64,000 nucleotides of DNA from a virus. Of the stretch, positions 10,020 through 63,630 are shown piece after piece. Position 1 is the stretch's first letter, and the number at the start of each line of letters is the position of its first letter. A model generated the notes under the pieces. That model did not search any database. It worked only from the letters and a program-made list of their open reading frames with translations, and was not told the origin of the DNA. The stretch lies in the IMG/VR virus record IMGVR_UViG_3300045988_127310; one strand, given 5' to 3'. Both the position numbers and the translations under genes were made by a program.

Positions 10020-13000
10020 ATGGTATCAACGTGTATTATTAAAAGAGATAATAAAAAGAAAGTTGTTTCTGTCTCTACCAGATCAGGGGACAGGTCTATG
10101 TTGTTTGATAAAATAGCATCTGTTCCTCTTATGGAGAACAGGGAGCGGGCTACTACTGTTTTTAAAACCGTATTTTCCAACAAGTTCTTAAAGGCTTTTG
10201 GCGACTGGAGAAAGAGAGTGCCTATCAACAAACAGGCTTATAATAAGGTAAAATCCAACATCGATCTTATCCCAGAAGCCTATAGAGAAAGGGTGCTGGA
10301 TAAGGCTTCTAAGATGAGTAATCCTGTTCTTGTATCAAAATCAGATGCAACTTATGGGATTCAAGAATCAGGCTTCGGATTCTATAGCCAAGATCTGGGT
10401 GATAATATTATGTTGGTGGATGCTATGATCCCATCAAGTATTTCCGTACCGGAAGAACCAGGAATAGACGCCGGGCAGTATTTACAAGATGCTATATTTT
10501 CGGACTTCACTCCCGTATCTGTGGTACAGGATAAGGGTGTTAATTATATGGTTATAAAAGACGGTCTTAAGATATTTAGCCCAGAAGAGCTACCAGAAAC
10601 AGATTCTAATCCTGTGGGTGTAACGTATCAGACTGGAGAGCCTCGTTTGTTTTTCATGAACGATCGTAGTCAATTATTTGAAGATTACGGAGAAGCTCTT
10701 CGCTCTGGCGGGAATGATATCAGAATAGGGTTCTTATCAGGCACCGTTCAAGAATCTACCGTGGATGGCGTGGCAGACATTACTTACAAAGCTGGAAAGT
10801 ATGTTCTTAATAATCCCAAATCTTTTATACCGGTCATGACCGCTTCTGCTTCTACTTCTTTATCAACAAAAGGTGGTATAATTAACTACCTTATAAAGAA
10901 AGGTCTTTTGTCCGGATCTAAGATATTCGATCCTGAAACAAGAAGCTATTATCTTACAGGAGAAGGTCATACAGGACAAATTAGACTTTTCAATTCAGCC
11001 TTATCATACACCGAGCTCCGTAATCATTTTGGTTCCGATGTTTCCATGAACGACCAAGGTATGATAACCATAAGCTCGTTGGATAACAGTAAGGTAACTA
11101 TGAGACTCGCCACCGGAGGAACGGAAAGGATTAGTAGGGAACAGATAAAGAACGATCTTAAGTCAGGAAGATACAATGAATTGGACGCCAAGTACGATCA
11201 TTTTGATGCGCTTGTAGTTTCATTCATATTAGAAGATAACGATCTTTATGCTGATACTAAAGCTAAGATCGTATCAGATTATAGCAGGCAGGAACGTGAC
11301 CAACGAAATTCTATTGTCGAGATACTGAAAACGCTTGGCGTTAGTGTCATAGGTATGACCGACTATATAGAGAAGTACCAAACCAAATACGGGCACGAAC
11401 CTTCTGCTAAGGCATTGGCGGATATTGCTAATAACGTAATAGCAGTTGGTGAAGATGCTACTTTATCTGATTTAGTAGAAGAAACAGCCCACTTTCTTGT
11501 AGAGGCATACAGAGATCAGAATGCTGTTGAGGCTGTTCTGCAAGATGTAGAAGGTACGGAAGAGTGGAACCAGTATGCAGGTCAGTATTATAATACATAC
11601 GGTAAAGCGTATGAAGGAGCTGAGCTTGATAATGCTGTTAGGAGAGAAATTCTTGGAAAGATCCTCGCCAGGGAGATGCAGGCCGGCACAGCACAGGCGC
11701 CGGTAGAGCCCACCTCCTTCCTGGGGCGCGTCCGGCAGCTTTTCTCTGGAATCGTAAGCTGGCTTAAATCAGCTTTATCAACCCAAAGACAAGATTTGAA
11801 TAACGTTATTAAAAACATTCGTGATCTTGCCATTACTGACATAGATAAAGGATTTGACACCTCTCTGTTAAAGGATAATGACTTTACATTATACTCCCTT
11901 TCTTCTATGAACAAGAACAAGTTTCTTGAGTCTAAGATCAGATCACTAAGAAAAACATTAAGAGACTTACGTCAGATAAGCTCTGATAGGGCTGTAACTA
12001 CGTCTATGACCCTTGCGCAGCTTAAGACCATAGAAGATAAGATAAATAAGGTAGAGACCGAAATAGACAAGAATGAGATGGCGGCTGCCATGAACAGCAT
12101 GATCTCCACAGCCGAAGCTCAGGTCAGATACTTAAGCAATGTGGTGAACACCATCCTTCATGGTGATACCAAAGACGGCAAGCTTCACTTCAACACCAAT
12201 GATCGAAAGAACGTAGATATTATCAACAATCAGGTTCTTCCGATCATGAACGATCTTCGAGGATATATCCGTAACAGAAGTACCGAATTTGATGAACGTG
12301 AAAAGCAGGATTATACAAATAGGATCAACACCGTCATTGCCGACATCAATGGTATTCAGTCTGATATTAAATCAGTACAAGACCTTGATGAAAGTACGTT
12401 GCTTGATAAGTTAATGAACGAACTTCATGTGCCGGCAGATAAGGTAAAGAGAGTAAAAGAATTTTTCGACAAGGTTCAACACGATGTTTCTTGGATAAGT
12501 AGGTGGTTTGGTATATTAGAGCATTCTTCCAGTCCGTTCAATAACGCTCTTGGAGCTATGATTGCCAAAGACAATTACAATGCGATGGTGAATGCCCAGC
12601 CCGCCATATCCGATTTCCTGGCATATGCGAAAAAGCATGGTTTTAACAAATCTGAATTTGAAAAACTGCTTCAGAAAGTAGACGGCAAAACTTCTAATTA
12701 CCTTCGTAGTGCTCTTGATATGGCTAAATACGATCGTAATAAGAAGCTGGCGCAGATGCGAGCGTTTGCGACTGCCATGAACATAGAGATATCAGAAGAA
12801 GAAATTGGTGATGTGGTTGACAATAACCGTAATTACGTATTTAAAAGAGAAGTAGTTGACAAGGATGGAAATACGGTTACTGAAAACGCTAAATTCAAAC
12901 CATCGTCTGATAGGGTTAATACCGATATTTTTACCATCGAGCAGGAAAAGATCTATACGGAACAGATGGAAAAGTGGGATGCTGAAAATTCGGAACTGGA

Positions 13001-16000
13001 ATTTAGTGAAAGTTATGCCACAAGAATGGAATCCATATACAAAAAGGCTGAAGAAGAATTAGGGCATCCAGTTTCTCAAACAACCAAAGAATACCTTAAT
13101 GCTCTATCCAGGCAAAAACGGATACTGAGGCAGCCTTTTATTGATAGCGGTGGTAATTTTGATGAAGTTGCCTATTTTAAAAGCAGCAATTACGAAGAAG
13201 AAGGACTGCTTCGTAAACAACGTAAAGAAGCAGCTTCAGAATACATATATGTAGGAACCAGGAGAGTGGAAAAAACCGGCGACCAACTTAAGATGGCCAA
13301 AGAAATACAAGCTATAAATGAAGTTTGGAGAAAGGAATCAAATAATGTTACTAATGCCGTATCAGAATCGTTTTTGCAAAAATTGAGAGCGATTCAGAGC
13401 GAATCAGGAGGGGAAGCTGCATTGAGAACGCTTATGTTGGGTGGTCACCTGTCATTCAACGATCGGTTTTGGAATGATATAGAATCGGAACAGTCAGCGC
13501 GCACCGAATCAAATAACAAGGCTTCGTATCTCAAAATGGCGCATGATATCATTAGTTCTACGACAAGCGATAGAGATGCGACTGACGTGGATTCTATTGT
13601 GAAAGATATAGAAAAAAATAAGGCTATTATCAAGGAAATAATCGGAAACAATCGCGATGTGGCTGATATCGGAGAAATTAACGAAGCAACATTTACCTCA
13701 TCCGAAAGAGATGCTTTTAGGGCCGCATCTGAAGCTATTGAAGCCGATTACGCTATTTTGATAGATTATGCTAAGATGGTGGGTCTTGAAGATATTGATA
13801 AGTACCTTACTAAAAGCAATAAGGCTGAAAACGAAGTAAATCAGTCTTATTTAAATGCTCTTGCTGACTCCAAGGAAGTGGAATGGAAGTTCGTACAACG
13901 TCATACTACGGCGAAGAAAGCAAAAAGGATTCAGGCTTTAAGGGATAAGCTGTTTAAGGCTGCTGATAACCGATATCTGTTTACCGTATCTGAAACCAAC
14001 TACCTGTCAGAAAAGCTTGGTATAAGCAAAGAATTAGACGGTAGAGATTTTAGGAATGCTGTTAATGCTAAGATGGCCAGCTTGTTTTTAAATAATACAA
14101 GAGAAGAGGGTATAGAAGCTGACATAAAAGCGGGCATAGAAGAGGCCAATGCTATTGTTAATGAATTTGCCAGGAGCCAGGTCTTTTCGTACTATAAACG
14201 CATGGCGCCTACTGGATATGCGGCTATGATCGACAAAATCGGTCGAGGTGAGATAGATGTGGCGCAGATGGTTAAGGACGTACAAAACGGTACATCCACC
14301 CAAGATTATGGCATGGATATATCGTACCTTTCTTTCGATCCTGCAAGGGCATGGGTGGCTGAATCTGAAGCCGAAAATAGCGGCCGTAATCCTGATTATG
14401 TAAAAGATCATGGGTATGGTCATCGAATGCCTAAGAAAAGCCTGTATCGTGATGAATCGTATTTCAATGACTTTGGCATCAAGTATGATGTTGACGGTAA
14501 TGAGGTTGCTACTAAAAATGTAGAGCAGTGGAATATGATTCAAAAACTCAAGGAAATAAAAAGACAATCCCTTGATCTATACAAAGAGCAGAGCCCGAAC
14601 CTGTATGCTATTCCACAGATATCAAAACAAGACATAGAACGTATAGAAGGATTGGGTATTAACTTCAAAAATACGGTTCGTAATTTTGTATCAGATCTGT
14701 GCCTGGACAGAGTAGACGATTCTCTATATGGTAAGACCAGGCAAGGAGAAGTGTATGACCCGGAAGACAGACTTAGGTCTATACCTAAATACTACATATA
14801 TGAGTTGGAGAACCAAGATGATGTATCTCACGATTTTGGCTACTCTTATTCGATGCTTATGATGCAGTCATCGTTATACAACGAAAAGCAGAAGTCTATA
14901 GAGCTCGCTCAAGGACTGGAACAGATGTTACTGAACAAGCAATTTGAAGGCGGTAAGAAGGCTGAAGCAACCCAAGCATATCAGATGTTCAGAGACTTCT
15001 TCAACGATCATTATTATGGCATTAGGATGAACACCAAAAGACTTACGGTGAACATCGGAGGATATACGGTAGACCTTACAAGAATTATGATGGCTGTTGA
15101 AAGATTTATGTCGGTCATGAACTTGGCACTGTCTCCGTTTGTGGCAGCTACCGGCGCCTTAACAGGTCATATCAACCTCATCATGGAATCTGCCGTAGGA
15201 CAGTATATAAGCAAAGACTCCCTTAAATACGCATCGGCTGAATTTTCACGCCTTGCTCCATCTTGTATAGCAGAAACCGGAGACATAGATAGGAAAAGTA
15301 AATTATATGTCATAGGTGAGAGAATGGGGATATTCAATATCCGAAATCGTATGTATGGTGCCGGATACAATAGAGCGGCCAGGACCTTAATGCGTTCGCC
15401 TATGTATGCTTTTATGGAAATCCTGAACTACCCTCTTGATCCGCAGGTTATGATTGCTACTATGGACAATGTTCGTTATTACAAAGGCCGGTTCTACACG
15501 CTCCAAGATTTCAAGATGGAAAAAGAACGCAATAAAGAACAGAGTACCATAAAAAGAGAATGGAACGCATTAAAAGATCGTACTTTATGGAGTATGGTAG
15601 ACGTCGTGGATGGGAAGGTGGTTGTAAAGCCCGGATCAGGTGTTACTGTTGAGGAAGTTGAAACCCAGATGGCTATAACCAGGAATCAAGTCCGTAGCTT
15701 GTCGCAGATATGTAACGGATCTTTGAATGAAGAAAACCGAACTGCTGCATCGCGCAACTGGATAGCCAGGTTCATGACCGCCCACCGAGGATGGTTGGTG
15801 CTGGCGGCTCAACGTCTGTGGAAAAGACGTGGCTTCAATTTCCAGACAATGCAAGAAGAGGAAGGGTTGTCAATTACGTTAAAGAATATGATAGCCAAAA
15901 CATTTAGCCTGGCTTCCGAGTCTGGTATGAAAAACATCATAGATGCCTGGAATGAAAATAAAGACAATATGAATGAGGTAGAAAAAACCAATCTCAAACG

Positions 16001-18618: not shown

Positions 18619-18750
18619 ATTATTTCACTTTTACGATTTTAATAGAATCTCCGATATTGTATTCTCCTTGGTATCCAACGAATTTTATGATTCTATTATG
18701 TTTAAATATTGAAGGTGATTATATACAACTTTGCACCATCTATATAAAAC

Positions 18751-18795
18751 AGAAGCCGGATAATGATTAACGTATATCCGGCTTCTGTTTTATAT
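18751..18795. terminator. bidirectional terminator hairpin (AGAAGCCGGATA/TATCCGGCTTCT)
   Basis: 12-bp perfect stem flanked by A-run and T-run on both sides. Confidence 0.6.
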
Positions 18796-18797
18796 GG

Positions 18798-18986
18798 TTA
18801 AAATTCTTTTTCGTTACCACCTTTTTTAGAGGTGGTTTTATCAAAAAGAGGGTCGTTAGGATCTGTTTTGGGATTATAGCTAAATACACCTTTAGCTATT
18901 CTCTTCATATCCTTCTCTAATTTTCCACTTTTACTACTTCTGATCGTAGTAGTGGTTGATATTGTGAATTTCTTATTTTTTTTCAT
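18798..18986 (-). CDS. small basic ORF downstream of the transposase
   Basis: 62 aa; overlaps the transposase stop by 4 nt. Weak. Confidence 0.3.
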   Translation of the reverse strand: MKKNKKFTISTTTTIRSSKSGKLEKDMKRIAKGVFSYNPKTDPNDPLFDKTTSKKGGNEKEF

Positions 18987-19906
18987 GCCGTAATTTTCTT
19001 TAGTTGTGAATACCTTAATCGTCGTTTGGTATTCTGCAAAAATACATCGAATCTTTCAGATTCCGATAGATGTTTCGTGTTATATCTGAAAGATTCGCAA
19101 TCTACATATCTTTGAAGATGTTTTCTCGACACCCAGAAATGGGTTCCAGAAATCATTTTCTTCAAATGGCTCCAATATCCTTCGATTGTGTTTGTTGATC
19201 TTCTGCCTATTACATACGCTCCCTTTTTGTGATATACTTTTTGATGATCAAACTTTTCTTTGTCGATCCCGTTATACGCATACCATTCGTCAGAATATAT
19301 GGTAGAATTAGGATGAACGGTATTGTATATCAAAGGAAGTAAGGTTTTACCTTTTGTGTCTGTAACGACATAAGTGACAACAAATCCTTCTCGTTGGAGT
19401 GTCCCAAACACAGGGGTTTTATCTTTTAAAGATCTCCCCTGTGCATCTTTAACTTTATCCTTACTATGTCTATTCTTGTTTTTGCCACCAATATAAGTTT
19501 CATCCACTTCAATCTCGCCTTTCAAACACGGCTCTTTTATTTCAATACTAAAACAATTGTGAATACGTTGAAGCATAAACCAAGCCGTTTTCTGTGTTAC
19601 TCCCACGATTTTAGACAACTGTAAAGATGATACTCCTCTTTTCATTTCAACAACAAAATAACAAGCCAGCATCCATTTTCGTAATGAAACCTTTGAATTT
19701 TCAAAAATCGTTCCTGTACGAACATTGAAGTATTTACCCGTGTTTTTACACTTGTACCTATTTCCTTTGCATTTATACACCTTAGATTCCGGATCAAAAG
19801 GAGAAACAACGTGATCTCCCCACCTTTCTTTTTCAAGAAAGGTTATACACGCTTGCTCATCAGGGAACAATTTTGAAAATTCAGGAAGTGATTTAAAATC
19901 GAACAT
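18983..19906 (-). CDS. IS1595-family (ISXO2-like) DDE transposase
   Basis: 307 aa. It has an N-terminal zinc-ribbon region, then a DDE-type core with the ISXO2-like pattern (GEIEVDETYIGGK ... YSDEWYAYNG ... TNTIEGYWSHLKK). Size and motifs fit IS1595-family transposases, which are common in Bacteroides. Confidence 0.7.
   Translation of the reverse strand: MFDFKSLPEFSKLFPDEQACITFLEKERWGDHVVSPFDPESKVYKCKGNRYKCKNTGKYFNVRTGTIFENSKVSLRKWMLACYFVVEMKRGVSSLQLSKIVGVTQKTAWFMLQRIHNCFSIEIKEPCLKGEIEVDETYIGGKNKNRHSKDKVKDAQGRSLKDKTPVFGTLQREGFVVTYVVTDTKGKTLLPLIYNTVHPNSTIYSDEWYAYNGIDKEKFDHQKVYHKKGAYVIGRRSTNTIEGYWSHLKKMISGTHFWVSRKHLQRYVDCESFRYNTKHLSESERFDVFLQNTKRRLRYSQLKKITA
18983..19906 (-). mobile_element. 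IS1595-family insertion sequence core; terminal inverted repeats not delimited
   Basis: Transposase gene only. Flanking AT-rich DNA gave no clear inverted repeats or target-site duplication. Confidence 0.4.
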
Positions 19907-20075
19907 ACTTCTTATCTTTATATTGGATTATAAAAATACAAAAATATATTCATATAACCAACTAAAAATCAATTAAATTCATCGAATATCTGATTTTGAA
20001 TTATTTTTTTTTTGTTGTTAAATTTCTAATTCTTTTCTATTTTTGAGGATTGTCTAACTTTATAATACTAATATC

Positions 20076-20471
20076 ATGTACAAGGAAACTGTCAAAATTG
20101 ATTCTATAGAGTGTACCATATTTTATGATCAAGATATTAATCTACCTCAAAAACAAGAAATAGATTTTGAATTTAAAATTGAAGACGTGCCCTCATACCA
20201 ATTTAAAAATGGACAAATCAATTCTTATGTTTCGGGTAAGATTTTTGAGATCAAGTCTATTTTACCTATAGAAGGCAATATTTCAAAATCTTCTTCTTTT
20301 GCTGAAATTCCTAAATTTAATATTACTTTTGATTTTCTATATAAATTATCTCTATTTCATTTGGAAAATCACTTGAAAACGTTAGAACTTGTATATAATC
20401 ATAAATTGGATAAAGATTCAATAACCAATATTCTTAAAAAGAAATTGGATGATTTTTTTTATCATAAATAA
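20076..20471 (+). CDS. hypothetical protein (131 aa)
   Basis: ORF in the cargo islet. Overlaps the 3' end of the leftward ORF 20434..20682. Confidence 0.4.
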   Translation: MYKETVKIDSIECTIFYDQDINLPQKQEIDFEFKIEDVPSYQFKNGQINSYVSGKIFEIKSILPIEGNISKSSSFAEIPKFNITFDFLYKLSLFHLENHLKTLELVYNHKLDKDSITNILKKKLDDFFYHK

Positions 20472-20682
20472 ATTTATCATACTCTTCTTTCGATATTCTT
20501 ATGCCATCTTTAAAATAGATGGCATAAGGCGTTTTTTCTGGTATAACTACAGAAATATATCCTTTTGAATGTAATATTTTCTGAAATTTATCATTGTCAA
20601 AAAAATAATAACTTTCAAGTAAATGGATATATTCTTTATCTGTTAACCCCCAAAGACTTTGATAATCTTCTAAATGTTTCAT
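20434..20682 (-). CDS. hypothetical small protein
   Basis: Its ATG directly abuts the conserved 38-nt element at 20681-20718. Confidence 0.45.
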   Translation of the reverse strand: MKHLEDYQSLWGLTDKEYIHLLESYYFFDNDKFQKILHSKGYISVVIPEKTPYAIYFKDGIRISKEEYDKFIYDKKNHPISF

Positions 20683-20718
20683 AACTGTAATTTTTAAAAG
20701 TGAATAATTAATTGATTT
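20681..20718 (-). promoter_or_regulatory. conserved 38-nt promoter/leader element, copy A (ATAACTnTAAnTTTTAAAAnTGAATAATTAATTGA)
   Basis: 35 of 38 nt identical to 43481-43518. Both copies end exactly at a leftward ATG. Confidence 0.45.
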
Positions 20719-20720
20719 AT

Positions 20721-20760
20721 AAAAAGAAAGCGGTGATAAACTAAGTTACCACCGCTTTTA
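20721..20760 (-). terminator. rho-independent terminator for the lipoprotein/OMP transcript (AAGCGGTG/CACCGCTT)
   Basis: 8-bp stem; a T-run on the minus strand follows the lipoprotein stop. Confidence 0.55.
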
Positions 20761-20778
20761 CTATCATATTGTTTCGTA

Positions 20779-21174
20779 TTACTTTATTTTGTACATTGAG
20801 AAATCTTCAAAATCACCAGATATACAATCAAGTTTCAGCCAACCTTCTGACACCTTTACATCATAAACAATAGGTGGCTCAGGGTCACTATCAAATACAA
20901 TGACTAATCTCATTGTATTTTTATCAAAAGAGTATGTGAAAGGATCTGGGCTTTTCTTTTTGCCTTCATTGTAATATACAGTCATTACGCCTGTATCGTC
21001 ATTATAAAATGTGAGTTCGAAAAATTCATCTGCGGGGAATTGCTCTCCCCATGAACCTATTAATATGCTGTTATTGTCATTATTCACATTATCGTCGTTA
21101 CACGAAAATGTGAATAAAAGTAGCAAGGTTAATAATATATGTAGTACTTGTTTCATGTTATTGTTAAAATTCAT
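20779..21174 (-). CDS. lipoprotein (signal peptide plus lipobox FSC)
   Basis: The N-terminus MKQVLHILLTLLLLFTFSCNDD is a type II signal peptide with a lipobox cysteine. Confidence 0.65.
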   Translation of the reverse strand: MNFNNNMKQVLHILLTLLLLFTFSCNDDNVNNDNNSILIGSWGEQFPADEFFELTFYNDDTGVMTVYYNEGKKKSPDPFTYSFDKNTMRLVIVFDSDPEPPIVYDVKVSEGWLKLDCISGDFEDFSMYKIK

Positions 21175-21868
21175 ATCCTACCTTTATACTAAATCCGTTC
21201 ATGTCACCACTTCCATCTCCCCATTCTTCATCAAATGATACCTTTTGTATAGAATATCCTATACCTAAATTAACAGCTTGTTTTTTAGTAGTCATAAACC
21301 GTACACCAATAAAAGGGTTACAATACAATCCACCTTTTTTTGCATGTCTTGGTGCTTCTTTAGTATTGAACTTATACCCTATTCTTAATGCAATAAAAGG
21401 TGATATTGGACCATTTAAGGCATATCCTCTCACATCAGCAAATATAGGTATGCTTACTGTTGAATAATCGGTCATATAGTGTATGCCGGTTCCACCTCCT
21501 ACAAATAAATACTGATTGATTTGGCTTCCATACGTGAAATATAATTCTGGACCTTTGTATCCACCTGCCCAGTATCCAAGATCAATCATAAATCTACTCC
21601 CTGTCAAATCGTACTTTTCATTGGATATCTTAAATGGAATTTTAGATTCTTTCTCTTCTTTGGTTATTTTACTGATATCTTCCATAGGGTACACAAACGT
21701 ACTACCATCAGAAGTGCGAATAGTAATTTGCTTGTCTGGTATCTGCTCGATAATAACCCCTTTTATAACACTTCCATTTTTTAAATGAATAGCTTCAACC
21801 ATTTTGTTCTGTGAGTAAGCGCATACACTACCCAATAGAACAACTAACAATAATAGATACTTTTTCAT
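21164..21868 (-). CDS. outer-membrane beta-barrel protein (Bacteroidetes OMP, porin-like)
   Basis: Signal peptide MKKYLLLLVVLLGSVCAYSQ; alternating amphipathic strands; C-terminal VGYEF aromatic terminus typical of beta-barrel OMPs. Confidence 0.65.
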   Translation of the reverse strand: MKKYLLLLVVLLGSVCAYSQNKMVEAIHLKNGSVIKGVIIEQIPDKQITIRTSDGSTFVYPMEDISKITKEEKESKIPFKISNEKYDLTGSRFMIDLGYWAGGYKGPELYFTYGSQINQYLFVGGGTGIHYMTDYSTVSIPIFADVRGYALNGPISPFIALRIGYKFNTKEAPRHAKKGGLYCNPFIGVRFMTTKKQAVNLGIGYSIQKVSFDEEWGDGSGDMNGFSIKVGYEF

Positions 21869-22363
21869 ATGAAATAATTTTGCTCTTTCTGCCTCCTTCG
21901 AAAGATTAACAAAAAAAAGAAGCGTGGAGACTATTGGATACTACCGCATTGAGGTCTTGGACTACCCTTCGCACAATAGTAAACAATAGCCCCACGCCTT
22001 ATGTCAGTATACTATTATCCCTCTTGTATAATCAGAATGCGTATACAACAACATAGGCGTAGGAGCTGTATGTCTATTATCTTGTGCGAATGAAAGTGTC
22101 CAAGTTTCAATGCAAGATAATATCTTAACGCTTCTACGTCTTTATTCTAATACGTGAGGGCAAAGATAGTTATTCTATCTAATATTTTAAAACGGCTTAA
22201 AAGGATTTAATTTGATGTAAAATGAATATTGGGAATTTTAACAGTTCGTGTTTTTGCATAAACAACAAAATATCTAAGATCATGAACAAATGCAAAAAGC
22301 CATCAAGAGAAACAGCCAGTAAAGCAGGCAAGTTATTAAGAAAGAAGATATCTTCCAAAGATG

Positions 22364-22708
22364 TTAAAACTCTTGCAGGTTACACTTTACAAGCCGCTTC
22401 CCGTCGTGGAAAAAGTAAGAGTGGTTGCCAAAAGAAAGGAAAATAAGTTCTTTAATACAAGCTTTTGGTATGGTCATTATACCAGAAGCTTGTTCTAATG
22501 TATTGGAATTACCAACAGCATAATGACCAGCTACAGATATAGATCTCTCATTTTCATGTACAACAATACCATAGCTCTCTATTTCTGATATATCTGTTTC
22601 GTAATCCTCCAGATCTACCCATGTTCTTTCTGATAGGTTGGAATCTATCCACTTAACTAATACCCGCTTGTTTAAAAGCGATTCTTTTTTATGTCTATTC
22701 TTTTTCAT
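22364..22708 (-). CDS. hypothetical protein (114 aa)
   Basis: Leftward ORF, preferred over the overlapping rightward 74-aa ORF. Confidence 0.45.
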   Translation of the reverse strand: MKKNRHKKESLLNKRVLVKWIDSNLSERTWVDLEDYETDISEIESYGIVVHENERSISVAGHYAVGNSNTLEQASGIMTIPKACIKELIFLSFGNHSYFFHDGKRLVKCNLQEF

Positions 22709-22817
22709 AACTTGTTATATTGATTTTTTAATAAACGAAAAGAGATTGTGCCAGCATTTTGACACAATCTCAATTATATGGGAATAATACTAAGGAAAGG
22801 TGTAAAGTGGTATATAA

Positions 22818-23006
22818 TTACCAAAATTTGTAACCTGGTTTTACAGCTTCCGCTTCTTCTCTCGTATCAAACATTAAGGTAGTGACAGCTCCTATGCCTT
22901 CGCAAATGTAAGACACTTTCACCCACCACCTAAAAATACCAGAACCGTAATCATCATAGTACGGCTCGGAAAGAATCTCTTCTACATACCCATCTAAATA
23001 ATTCAC
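22818..23006 (-). CDS. hypothetical small protein
   Basis: 4-nt overlap with the upstream gene. Confidence 0.35.
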   Translation of the reverse strand: MNYLDGYVEEILSEPYYDDYGSGIFRWWVKVSYICEGIGAVTTLMFDTREEAEAVKPGYKFW

Positions 23007-42267: not shown

Positions 42268-42936
42268 TTACGGCTCTTTTGATTCGTCCGGTATAGGCAT
42301 GTCAAACTTTTTTCTGATAAACGACTCTGTTTCTTCATTGAATGGATAGGCCTCCTTAATAAAATTCATAGCTACCTCCATATCACCGTCTGCTATATCT
42401 TTATACCTTTCAAAGATACCAATCAGGTCATTGTTATATGAACGCTCTTGTTTTATGTTGTACACGTATTTCAACACCCTGTCTTTAATTTCATTGGCTT
42501 TTTTCACAGTATCATTGAAGGAATTTATACTTTCCAATTCTGGATCTTTGTTTTCCTTGTTTACCTTATCAAACTCTTCCTTGCTATATCCTGCTTCTCC
42601 TGTAATGGCTGGGCAAACACTTCCATTTATGATCCAAAACTGTTCATACGATCCTATCAGAAACTTTGATTCCATTTTAAATGCATTATATTTAATAAGC
42701 AAATTAGCCACCTCTGTTGCACCTTCTATGGTTCTAAAACCGATACCGATATCTTTTAACATAAATACTGGAACTCCAGTTCTTGGATACACGACTTCTT
42801 TTTTGTTCTTTATATTCCAGTTTTTAGCTTCAATTGGAATACCTTTACCAGCAAGCTCTTTGTCTATATACAGATATATCTCTTTGCATGTCAATGACAC
42901 GATCTCATCTCTGCTTAAATCAAAAACTGTTTTCAT
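42268..42936 (-). CDS. hypothetical protein (222 aa)
   Basis: Colinear ORF. Confidence 0.55.
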   Translation of the reverse strand: MKTVFDLSRDEIVSLTCKEIYLYIDKELAGKGIPIEAKNWNIKNKKEVVYPRTGVPVFMLKDIGIGFRTIEGATEVANLLIKYNAFKMESKFLIGSYEQFWIINGSVCPAITGEAGYSKEEFDKVNKENKDPELESINSFNDTVKKANEIKDRVLKYVYNIKQERSYNNDLIGIFERYKDIADGDMEVAMNFIKEAYPFNEETESFIRKKFDMPIPDESKEP

Positions 42937-43136
42937 TTATTTTTATTTATTAAATTAAACAATCTACCTCTTTGTTCAGGCTCCGTATATTCTACCCATA
43001 TATCGGCTGCCACATTTCTAAGAAATTCCATAAAGTCATGATGATCCCTGTATTCAACAGAATCGACTTTTCTCACAAAACTTAGGATTTCCTTTAACAT
43101 CTTATTGTTTTCTTCAAGAAGCTCTCTGTCGGTCAT
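42933..43136 (-). CDS. hypothetical small protein
   Basis: 4-nt overlap. Confidence 0.4.
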   Translation of the reverse strand: MTDRELLEENNKMLKEILSFVRKVDSVEYRDHHDFMEFLRNVAADIWVEYTEPEQRGRLFNLINKNK

Positions 43137-43321: not shown

Positions 43322-43480
43322 TCCGGTATTAGACCTCGCCTCTACGAATTAAATAACATTCTCCTTTTTTATTAGGATGCTTCTTAAACGGATCTTTTGG
43401 CAAATATATGTATTCATACTTATCAGTACATTTTTTTTGTTTCTCCAAATTGGATGAAGTGTTTTTCCTTTTTTTGTCTC

Positions 43481-43518
43481 ATAACTCTAACTTTTAAAAA
43501 TGAATAATTAATTGAGTA
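43481..43518 (-). promoter_or_regulatory. conserved 38-nt promoter/leader element, copy B
   Basis: 35 of 38 nt identical to 20681-20718. Abuts the ATG at 43472 of a 19-codon ORF. Confidence 0.45.
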
Positions 43519-57059: not shown

Positions 57060-57561
57060 ATTCCACTATATTTATGTTGTCAAATTTTTCTTTTATAACA
57101 TCCAAGGCGCCACACTCGTTTGTTACCATAGCATACTTTCCTGGCTTCATTCTCCACAGATTGAAATACCTTGTCACATTTATAATGTTGTTAAATAATG
57201 ATATTTCGTATCTTGTATTCCCATTTACATCATGTCCAGCTTTTTTTAAATAACATAGGGTCGGCTTGTATTTGAAATAATTAAAAAGCCTATACCATCC
57301 CTTTCCGTTACATGTTTCACGATTCCATATTCCAGTAAGCTTCCTATATCCCCTTACCGGTATTTTCTCTATTTCTTTTGGTACAATCTTGACATACTCT
57401 CCTTCTCCGATTGGTATAGTCATATTACCTGCCTCTTCCGTGCAAAAGTATTCTATTTCAGATGCCATTCCTTTATACACATAGAACCGGTATGGGTTCC
57501 CGTCAGGGTCTACCCGATCCATATAGTATAATATCACTTTGTCTACTTTTATCTTTTTCAT
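57046..57561 (-). CDS. hypothetical protein (171 aa)
   Basis: Colinear ORF. Confidence 0.55.
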   Translation of the reverse strand: MKKIKVDKVILYYMDRVDPDGNPYRFYVYKGMASEIEYFCTEEAGNMTIPIGEGEYVKIVPKEIEKIPVRGYRKLTGIWNRETCNGKGWYRLFNYFKYKPTLCYLKKAGHDVNGNTRYEISLFNNIINVTRYFNLWRMKPGKYAMVTNECGALDVIKEKFDNINIVEYGSE

Positions 57562-57809
57562 TCCTTTATTCTCCTTATCTTTAAATCGTTATTCCCACAG
57601 TATTCCTTCAACCAACTATCCGTTAGATAACGATTAACTCTATCGTATTTCTTTTTCGGACCCTTGCTCCAGAATTTCCATTCGTTTGTGATATTGTACC
57701 CATATTTATCAAACCAATGGATATAATACACTACGTTACCGTACAAATCCACTCTTTTTCTTTCCTGTATGACTACCTCGTAAGGCATCTTCTTGCCTCT
57801 TTTCTCCAT
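57558..57809 (-). CDS. hypothetical protein (83 aa)
   Basis: 4-nt overlap. Confidence 0.45.
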   Translation of the reverse strand: MEKRGKKMPYEVVIQERKRVDLYGNVVYYIHWFDKYGYNITNEWKFWSKGPKKKYDRVNRYLTDSWLKEYCGNNDLKIRRIKE

Positions 57810-57887
57810 CTTTGTCCTCCTTTCTTGAATAAAAAAAACGGCACCTATCTTCGCAGACCAGTGCCGGTAACTAACTTACATGGAAAA

Positions 57888-62161: not shown

Positions 62162-62180
62162 ATAATTATGTTTTATTGTT

Positions 62181-62205
62181 TGTGAGATGCCCAGAATCGA
62201 ACCAG
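62181..62205 (-). promoter_or_regulatory. conserved 25-nt promoter-proximal element, copy 1 (tRNA T-arm-like: CTGGTTCGATTCTGGGCATCTCACA on the minus strand)
   Basis: 22 of 25 nt identical to 63429-63453. Both copies lie 22-24 nt upstream of a leftward ATG and follow a terminator hairpin. Confidence 0.45.
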
Positions 62206-62248
62206 GACCGGCACATACGCACCGGCACGCCGCGTCATCCCTCTATGA

Positions 62249-62288
62249 TACAGAAATAGGCATGTCTATCCTCACGAACCGACATGCC
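62249..62288 (-). terminator. rho-independent terminator (GGCATGTC/GACATGCC stem plus T-run on the minus strand)
   Basis: 8-bp perfect stem and 14-nt loop, followed by TATTTCTGTAT. Downstream of gene 62335..62649. Confidence 0.55.
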
Positions 62289-62334
62289 AAAACCCAAAAC
62301 TTAATTTGATGAATAAAATAGATTAACAAAAATA

Positions 62335-63406: not shown

Positions 63407-63428
63407 GTTCTTCCCTATTTTAATGTTG

Positions 63429-63453
63429 TGTGAGATCGCCGGAATCGAACCAG
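63429..63453 (-). promoter_or_regulatory. conserved 25-nt promoter-proximal element, copy 2 (CTGGTTCGATTCCGGCGATCTCACA on the minus strand)
   Basis: See copy 1. Confidence 0.45.
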
Positions 63454-63469
63454 CCTACCGCACCATGAA

Positions 63470-63511
63470 TCCCATAAAGCAAATGCTCCGATCTTCGCAG
63501 ACGGGAGCATT
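63470..63511 (-). terminator. rho-independent terminator (AATGCTCC/GGAGCATT stem plus T-run on the minus strand)
   Basis: 8-bp perfect stem followed by TTTGCTTTAT on the minus strand. Confidence 0.5.
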
Positions 63512-63630
63512 CTGTCTAAAGCATAAGAAAATTAATGAAGAAATTTTTCTCACTTACGCCATAGCATCTAAAATAGCTATCAGCACTATTTCTATGACAA
63601 ACATAATAGAAAATATCTTAAATGCCTTTT

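Follow-up and report, generated by a model that had tools for sequence, protein, structure and literature searches.

Two nearly identical short sequences stand directly in front of the start codons of two leftward genes that lie some 23 kb apart in a stretch of viral DNA of 64,000 nucleotides (IMG/VR record IMGVR_UViG_3300045988_127310; the whole stretch is called the window below). An earlier note on this DNA had read them as a duplicated promoter plus leader, or as a repressor operator, by which the phage would place a gene of a cargo islet under the same control as a gene deep in its own leftward block. What is this element, and how did it come to precede both genes?

Two copies of the element in the window

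The two copies are the following:

20683-20715, minus strand: copy A, 33-nt leader TCAATTAATTATTCACTTTTAAAAATTACAGTT, directly 5' of the ATG at 20682-20680; the same 33 nt occur in the bacterial copy L166
43483-43515, minus strand: copy B, 33-nt leader TCAATTAATTATTCATTTTTAAAAGTTAGAGTT, directly 5' of the ATG at 43482-43480; kept in phage csAssE-Sib and in IMG/VR relatives

The repeat is real, but the strings quoted for it are 35 nt long and identical at 32 of 35 positions (20681-20715 versus 43481-43515), rather than 38 nt long with 35 identities. Ungapped extension brings it to 41 nt, with 37 of 41 positions identical (20675-20715 versus 43475-43515), the extension running 6 nt into the coding region of both genes. 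On the minus strand the element reads TCAATTAATTATTCA[C/T]TTTTAAAA[A/G]TTA[C/G]AGTT. As had been noted, each copy adjoins a leftward ATG, which follows immediately, so that the element consists of the 33 nt preceding a start codon. A perfect 8-bp palindrome, AATTAATT, is present in both window copies. The ORFs behind copies A and B have no significant similarity to each other, in agreement with their description as unrelated genes.

In a search allowing up to 3 mismatches, copies A and B were the sole matches in the 64-kb window, with 0.00 expected from shuffled sequences, and chance or low complexity was therefore rejected as the origin of the repeat. A profile for weaker copies was made from all variants of the element. 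It recovered copies A and B with E values of 3.8e-11 and 7.2e-11, the next best match having an E value of 3.3; no weaker or degenerate copy was thus found in the window. One more backbone copy lies outside the window, at positions 13716-13758 of csAssE-Sib. Searching the window and csAssE-Sib with the profile yielded no copies beyond two per genome, which rules out a many-copy promoter class; the element is present in 2 to 3 copies per genome.

The phage and its host

Phage csAssE-Sib (OR575929.1, 151 kb, human gut), whose annotation includes crAss-type ring and muzzle proteins, matches parts of the window at 93-95% identity. A literature search on csAssE-Sib found nothing. Several window genes carry the Bacteroidetes -7 box TAnnTTTG, and the 101 genes of the window show A at a frequency of 0.56 to 0.69 at positions -14 to -11 and a purine at -3, without a Shine-Dalgarno sequence. 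This combination of A enrichment, purine at -3, -7 boxes and lack of Shine-Dalgarno sequences places the host almost certainly in the Bacteroidota.

Copy A lies inside an IS1595-family transposon

Copy A was found within a transposon bounded by inverted repeats. Its features are given below in minus-strand order, that is, left repeat, three passenger genes, terminator, copy A, 82-aa ORF, convergent 131-aa ORF, transposase, 62-aa ORF, hairpin and right repeat.

18714-22822, minus strand: IS1595-family cargo transposon, 4,109 bp, with inverted repeats and transposase, found at other sites in phages and bacteria; contains copy A
22799-22822, minus strand: left inverted repeat GGTAATTATATACCACTTTACACC (repeat search)
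20779-22708, minus strand: span of the passenger genes
22364-22708, minus strand: passenger gene, 114 aa
21164-21868, minus strand: passenger gene, 234 aa, weak similarity to outer membrane protein (OMP) beta-barrels
20779-21174, minus strand: passenger gene, 131 aa, DUF5640-like
20727-20758, minus strand: terminator-like hairpin (13-bp stem and T-run), U-runs on either strand; separates the passenger genes from copy A
20434-20682, minus strand: 82-aa ORF behind copy A, forward gene of a variable slot; weak similarity to forward ORFs in L165, L169 and L168 (bacterial copies)
20076-20471, plus strand: convergent 131-aa ORF, reverse gene of the variable slot; overlaps the 82-aa ORF by 38 nt
20038-20075, plus strand: leader C, a second conserved leader; its canonical -7 box TATTTTTG occupies 20038-20045 and precedes the ATG at 20076 by 30 nt
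18983-19906, minus strand: IS1595-family DDE transposase, 307 aa (Pfam DDE_Tnp_IS1595, 4.1e-42, and Zn_ribbon_IS1595)
18798-18986, minus strand: conserved 62-aa ORF 3' of the transposase; the same ORF follows the transposase in bacterial copies
18742-18795: perfect 21-bp hairpin after the 62-aa ORF
18714-18737, plus strand: right inverted repeat GGTGATTATATACAACTTTGCACC (repeat search)

The inverted repeats are 24 nt long and 88% complementary, none being expected by chance, with the consensus GGT[G/A]ATTATATAC[A/C]ACTTT[G/A]CACC; their tip, GGnnATTAT, seems to resemble that of the ISNwi1 subgroup. The transposase scores 192.8 bits against NCBIfam NF033547, for a cut-off of 75. Family searches of the transposon genes returned no tyrosine or serine recombinase, the DDE transposase being the only enzyme of this kind, and no DNA-binding or regulator gene is consistently present across transposon copies. 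As stated in the earlier note, copy A follows the terminator of the islet: the hairpin occupies 20758-20727 and is separated from the element by an 11-nt spacer. The region including it folds at -23.9 kcal/mol (z -3.84).

The window transposon has no 8-bp target duplication, its flanks reading atattgaa and aaaatttg. Of its phage relatives, copy L045 is flanked by a perfect 8-bp duplication, ATTTTAGT, and copy L022 by one matching at 7 of 8 positions. The repeat-bounded unit was found at no fewer than 5 different positions in related phages (IMG/VR contigs) and at 4 chromosomal sites in bacteria. The earlier note would have taken it as a refutation if the element belonged to a longer duplicated segment such as an IS end. 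This applies in part: both copies derive from an IS, but the element is not an IS end, copy A lying about 2.0-2.1 kb from either inverted repeat.

IS1595-family insertion sequences with passenger genes have reportedly been described under the name of "transporter IS". The window transposon has in common with them the DDE transposase, terminal inverted repeats and passengers placed between one repeat and the transposase, and its sister copies also have the 8-bp target duplications. Unlike them, it resides in crAss-like phage genomes as well as in Bacteroidales chromosomes, and it has a conserved order of terminator, leader A, two convergent overlapping ORFs, leader C, transposase and 62-aa ORF, in which the two-ORF part is hypervariable. 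The finding is nevertheless largely explained by this known kind of element. A literature search on IS1595 passenger genes returned no description of this particular transposon.

The same transposon in Bacteroidales chromosomes and in a sister lineage

Searches with the transposase gave 6,897 matching proteins at E values up to 1e-20, and relatives of it are encoded on 237 IMG/VR stretches. Proteins 86-90% identical to the transposase are encoded in Bacteroidales chromosomes, on long contigs together with ordinary bacterial genes, among them those for glycogen phosphorylase, queC, queF and dnaX; for one of the proteins, a source gives the name Parabacteroides faecis. The bacterial copies keep the internal gene order of the window transposon and have inverted repeats of 23 nt; these are perfect in L165 and L168, while L166 and L169 show 1-2 substitutions. 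Target duplications of 8 bp flank L165, L166, L168 and L169 (sequences AAGCAAAT, ATTTCTTA, ATAATTTT and TGATATTG). In L166 the leader is identical to copy A at 33 of 33 positions and occupies the same internal position, before a different ORF of 63 aa; that of L168 departs from copy A by a 1-nt deletion and one substitution.

A sister transposon lineage, with a transposase 71-72% identical to that of the window, is common in phage contigs of about 150 kb. Its leader reads TTATTAACTTTTAAAAATTACA(A/G)TT-ATG and is identical to copy A at 21 of 22 positions over -24 to -3, compared to 55-59% identity for neighbouring non-coding DNA and 69% for the transposase coding sequence. Conservation of the leader across lineages above the level of its flanks and of the coding sequence argues that it is an old, selectively maintained part of the transposon. 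A transposon common to Bacteroidales chromosomes and to crAss-like gut phages of about 150 kb provides both a clue to the host and a concrete route of gene flow between phage and host. This sharing, and the architecture of a conserved leader joined to a variable slot, seem to be undescribed.

Copy B is the remnant of a second transposon copy

Two features surround copy B in the phage backbone:

43516-43528, minus strand: solo 13-nt inverted-repeat tip GGTAATTATATAC, adjoining copy B without spacer; corresponds to nucleotides 1-13 of the left repeat and is oriented like it
43329-43482, minus strand: small ORF behind copy B, 50 codons in relatives, 19 codons in the window (43423-43482)

The first G of the tip is also the last base of the stop codon of the upstream gene. 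Matches to the repeat tip number 3 in the window, namely the two transposon ends and the copy B site, where 0.14 are expected, and the presence of this tip next to copy B identifies it as a transposon remnant. The ORF behind it had been described as having 19 codons, which holds for the window; this is however a frameshifted form of a 50-codon ORF, truncated by a run of seven A (43469-43475) where csAssE-Sib and the IMG/VR relatives have six.

Eighty loci of the copy-B site were gathered through the neighbouring 88-aa gene rather than through the element, which avoids ascertainment bias. The site lies between this gene and a 67-aa gene (42933-43136), and three classes of alleles were distinguished:

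Class 1: repeat tip, full leader and 50-aa ORF; about 9 loci, plus the window
Class 2: repeat tip, leader with a 12-nt deletion that takes out the AATTAATT palindrome, and 82-aa ORF; about 45 loci
Class 3: neither tip nor leader, and an unrelated Zn-ribbon ORF; about 24 loci

The ORFs of the first two classes are also found in transposons. The 50-aa ORF occupies the slot behind leader A in intact copies (L035/L174 and L181), and the 82-aa ORF of class 2 stands behind the transposon terminator and leader in L013. The further backbone copy of csAssE-Sib precedes a 66-aa ORF; upstream of this copy stands one half of the transposon terminator, and downstream a tip resembling that of the right repeat. 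Three different junctions all begin after position 13-14 of the inverted repeat. Taken together, the repeat tips, the allele classes and the ORFs in common with intact transposons indicate that the backbone copies are decayed transposon insertions. Several small backbone ORFs (50-aa, 82-aa MKKDLTDKEKE, 66-aa and 54-aa) appear to be leftovers of the transposon slot that have retained the transposon leader.

Solo IS-end remnants can leave expression signals beside host genes. Copy B is likewise made of an inverted-repeat fragment and internal transposon sequence, now fronting a resident ORF; it differs from such remnants in that 13 nt of the repeat are joined directly to a leader situated about 2 kb inside the intact element, and in that this type of junction recurs with other downstream sequences.

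The repeat is thus the footprint of a mobile element, with one intact and one decayed transposon copy, and not a phage control circuit. In the proposal that the phage puts an islet gene under the same control as a backbone gene, the direction was reversed: the leader is intrinsic to an IS1595-family transposon that also resides in bacterial chromosomes. Origin of the element from the transposon is well supported.

A variable slot between two conserved leaders

Among transposon copies otherwise 97-99% identical, homology ends exactly at the ATG that follows leader A and resumes exactly at the ATG of the convergent ORF. An apparent boundary at 20078-20091 had been considered as a further repeat and was rejected, as it corresponds to the start codon of this convergent ORF. 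In the phage copies measured, the segment between the two ATGs is 370 to 638 nt long and always encodes two convergent ORFs, which overlap by 10 to 38 nt. The reverse ATG is placed 162-176 nt from the transposase ATG (26 measured copies out of 26). Module types recur across transposon lineages:

Type I: forward ORF of 51-66 aa and DUF1508 reverse ORF (31.2 bits)
Type II: forward ORF of 55-56 aa and weakly Myb-like reverse ORF
Type III: includes the pair of the window

Several slot ORF pairs have no detectable relatives. Pfam and PHROGs searches gave nothing reliable for the 9 forward ORFs, and only the type I reverse ORF has a match, to DUF1508. No fewer than 9 distinct small ORFs stand behind the leader, and one ORF can follow different upstream contexts; the 50-aa ORF, for instance, comes after the 88-aa gene in the backbone and after the terminator in the transposon. 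Within the element itself, chimeric variants were found.

The element as a probable translation initiation region

Copy A has A at -13 to -9 and at -6, and G at -3; copy B has A at -13 to -10 and at -6, and G at -3. Neither leader copy contains a Shine-Dalgarno sequence, and a literature search for a Bacteroides ribosome-binding sequence returned nothing. Both are unstructured, with minimum free energies of -4.0 and -3.1 kcal/mol over 70 nt (z +0.39 and +0.90 relative to shuffled sequences). In Flavobacterium johnsoniae, A is enriched at -14 to -11, -6 and -3, and leaders have a mean length of 33 nt (Baez et al. 2019, PMC6847099), which is the length of the present leader. The Bacteroidia initiation regions described there, devoid of Shine-Dalgarno sequences, share with the element the A-run at about -14 to -11, the A at -6, the purine at -3, low structure and a leader of about 33 nt. 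They are however statistical preferences over many genes, whereas here one specific 33-nt sequence, carried along by a mobile element and for this reason nearly unchanged, is found before unrelated ORFs. General constraints on initiation would not by themselves preserve 33 identical nucleotides.

Scored on the upstream profile of the window's own genes, the element reaches 5.8 bits, for a mean of 3.8 and a standard deviation of 3.9. It stands only about 0.5 standard deviation above the mean, and the view that it is an exceptional initiation region was discarded in favour of a typical one. Upstream of window genes, TTTTAAAA occurs 4 times versus 0.7 expected, and AATTAA 17 times versus 2.9 expected; this modest enrichment reflects leaders of loosely similar sequence rather than additional copies of the element.

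The GTDB has 29 genomes with a 22-nt core of the element, AATTAATTATTCANTTTTAAAA, and about 20 of these genomes belong to the Bacteroidota. In 10 of the 29, the core precedes an ORF of at least 72 aa, standing 7-12 nt before the ATG and always in sense orientation. Two Chitinophagaceae have a -7 box, TACATTTG, just 5' of the core, at the distance expected for a transcription start, and after the core a 201-aa ORF, whose N-terminus, by eye, looks like superoxide dismutase. Rfam covariance models gave nothing at the element with E values up to 1, and no family at gathering score in the window.

We consider it likely, though not certain, that the element serves as 5' leader (translation initiation region) for the gene that opens a variable two-gene slot in an IS1595-family cargo transposon, which circulates between Bacteroidales and crAss-like gut phages of about 150 kb, copy A belonging to an intact transposon and copy B to a relic. 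In this reading copy A is the leader within the intact transposon at 18714-22822, and copy B the same leader from an older transposon copy, fused to the first 13 nt of the left repeat and fronting a small backbone ORF. The structure, distribution and conservation of the element are shown, whereas its function is inferred. From its position and composition, the element would offer ribosomes a landing site on the mRNA like those of Bacteroidia, A/U-rich, unstructured and independent of a Shine-Dalgarno sequence. It may also provide a patch of homology for the exchange of small-gene cassettes between transposon copies and the phage backbone, since it is conserved while both its flanks vary; the combinatorial pairings of upstream and downstream sequences, and the chimeric variants, support its use as a crossover patch.

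Promoter, operator, recombination site or captured phage leader

Of the earlier reading of a duplicated promoter plus leader, the leader is retained, the full 33 nt before the ATG being duplicated with the initiation-region features of Bacteroidia, and the promoter is not, as no TAnnTTTG occurs in or just upstream of either copy. Searched as TAHHTTTG, the -7 box, which in Bacteroidetes promoters lies 4-5 nt before the transcription start, was absent between the terminator or stop codon and the ATG at both copies, while the same DNA provided positive controls at 20038-20045 (TATTTTTG) and at the genes at 10020, 36512 and 42192. As a consequence, read-through or a non-canonical promoter, within the element or beside it, must be assumed for the forward ORF. 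A self-contained promoter with a short leader, made of the element and an upstream TATAAA or TATATAC box and rendering each small ORF autonomous, would meet this need, through a host RNA polymerase of non-canonical specificity or a phage-directed polymerase. It would fit with the position of copy A behind a terminator, where the 82-aa ORF seems to need a promoter of its own, with the sequence TTATA(A/T)A shared by upstream contexts U1 to U4 at 36-41 nt before the ATG, and with TCAYTTTTAAAA being the best conserved segment across transposon lineages. Also in its favour, the middle promoters of the crAss-like phage phi14:2 are similar to sigma-70 -35/-10 boxes, and E. coli RNA polymerase uses them in vitro; early promoters of this phage have no common motif, and the literature on crAss-like promoters offered no consensus usable for this clade. 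We nevertheless find such a promoter rather doubtful. The convergent ORF and several phage genes have a TAnnTTTG box and the element has none, a generic sigma-70 scan listed nothing at the element, 2-3 copies per genome without degenerate relatives are unlike a promoter class, and in bacterial genomes the core sits between the -7 box and the ATG, hence inside the transcript. An operator is far less probable still. In this proposal the AATTAATT palindrome, perfect over 8 bp in both window copies, would bind a phage or transposon repressor co-regulating both genes, and one slot variant does encode a weakly Myb-like protein. The palindrome is however missing from most alleles, which argues against an operator: a 12-nt deletion removes it in roughly 45 of the 80 copy-B alleles, it is absent from L169, and it is replaced by TCATATTTA in the sister lineage with the 72% identical transposase, which keeps the 3' part of the leader. 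Moreover, the transposon has no consistent DNA-binding gene, and AATTAA is generally enriched upstream of genes in this DNA.

Breaks of homology exactly at the start codons on both sides of the slot, and the many different cassettes of 370-638 nt found there, could also suggest an integron-like site-specific recombination site, at which cassettes are inserted and excised precisely at the ATG. This appears improbable for a transposon without tyrosine or serine recombinase, and for an unstructured element that forms no attC-like structure; the most conserved part is the initiation region rather than a symmetrical core site, and the chimeric patterns of variable positions inside the element fit homologous crossovers. 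There remains the converse origin, in which the leader is ancestral in the phage, as copy B, and was later acquired from it by the transposon. Copy B is indeed fixed at one backbone position in many phages. We give this origin very little credence, because chromosomal transposon copies flanked by target duplications have the leader at the corresponding internal position, as does the lineage whose transposase is only 71-72% identical, and because the backbone site has alleles without leader and copy B carries the inverted-repeat tip of the transposon.

Possible exchange of convergent gene pairs

Since the terminator-like hairpin has U-runs on both strands, the convergent transcript, once past the leader in antisense, probably terminates at it. 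Control of the forward gene by such a transcript is speculation. Tentatively, leaders A and C may bound a dedicated hypervariable slot for interchangeable modules of convergent, 3'-overlapping ORFs, which would amount to an undescribed cassette-exchange or addiction/defence-type system operating between Bacteroidales and crAss-like phages, and in which the antisense convergent transcript could control the forward gene. A variable convergent two-ORF slot between two conserved leaders is in any case an unusual and testable architecture.

Comparable arrangements reportedly exist in the promoter-early stem-loop (PeSL) cassettes of T4-type phages and in the morons and boundary sequences of lambdoid phages. 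There too, short conserved expression signals by a terminator flank small accessory ORFs and serve as crossover points, by which these ORFs are shuffled from genome to genome. The present case differs from both in that no promoter consensus was found for the leader, in that the conserved signal belongs to a DDE transposon and not to the regulatory repertoire of the phage, and in that two leaders here enclose a variable pair of convergent genes.

Variable parts of the IS1595-family transposon

The cargo transposon of the window contains a hypervariable slot occupied by two small convergent ORFs that overlap by 10-38 nt, and whose edges are exactly the two ATGs, with a conserved leader on each side. 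Among the collected loci (L numbers: related phage contigs, bacterial chromosome copies and GTDB loci), equivalents were found as follows.

Window 20076-20682: variable slot
L022, L035, L038, L045, L165-L169 and L174-L209: equivalent slots

The same module types were found repeatedly in different transposon lineages: one type has a DUF1508 partner, another has a partner that is weakly Myb-like, and still others have no detectable relatives.

Comparison of the flanks of the window transposon (18706-18713 versus 22823-22830) revealed no 8-bp target duplication, whereas sister copies carry one. This difference suggests that the flanks were swapped by recombination between copies, or that the transposon arrived via homologous recombination rather than by transposition.

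The 23-nt inverted repeats of this transposon also bound a 1,349-bp unit in the human gut phage csAssE-Sib.

csAssE-Sib OR575929.1 64111-65459 (L033 14111-15459): TnpB unit

Its sole annotated gene encodes a TnpB-family RNA-guided endonuclease, and neither an IS1595 transposase nor a target duplication was found. It looks like a non-autonomous derivative sharing the ends of the IS1595 transposon.

Leaders joined to repeat tips and in Bacteroidota

At several loci, a 13-14-nt inverted-repeat tip is joined to different downstream leaders, namely CTAATTTAAT..., CTAAAATAAT..., and a hybrid TCAATTAAGATAATTATATATC-TCAATTAATT. The independent junctions all start after position 13-14 of the inverted repeat.

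L043 11772 and 2835 (oriented with the element, the 33-nt leader, on the plus strand): tip-leader junctions
L015, L020, L025, L027, L029 and L030, near the element: tip-leader junctions

In diverse Bacteroidota, genes unrelated to one another carry the exact 22-nt core, AATTAATTATTCANTTTTAAAA, 7-12 nt 5′ of their start codons.

GTDB loci L055, L057, L058/L067, L063, L065, L072, L073, L076 and L081: exact 22-nt core sites

In L076 and L073 the core is followed by ATTACA(N)T(T)ATG, in common with the phage element. These sites suggest either convergent use of this type of leader, or a broader spread of transposon-derived leaders.

Other start-codon regions

One gene of the window has a Shine-Dalgarno-like AAGGAGG 6 nt 5′ of its ATG, downstream of a terminator, which is unusual, the genome being elsewhere without such sequences. 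Two related stretches, each a short way 5′ of an ORF start, terminate in sequence resembling the T-arm and acceptor of a tRNA (GGTTCGATTC...CATCTCACA). ARAGORN detected no tRNA in them, and no Rfam family reached threshold; possible identities are tRNA fragments and tRNA-like elements.

About 57810-57850, upstream of gene 57558-57809: Shine-Dalgarno-like site
62166-62300 and 63415-63530, minus strand: tRNA-like stretches

In genes behind copy B, the relic copy of the leader, a poly-A tract immediately 3′ of the start codon was A6, A7 or A8 long in otherwise near-identical contigs.

Window 43469-43475; loci L103, L105, L119, L122 and L154: variable poly-A tract

Such length changes, which could reflect slipped-strand phase variation or assembly error, shift the frame of the small ORF, as in the 19-codon form of the window.
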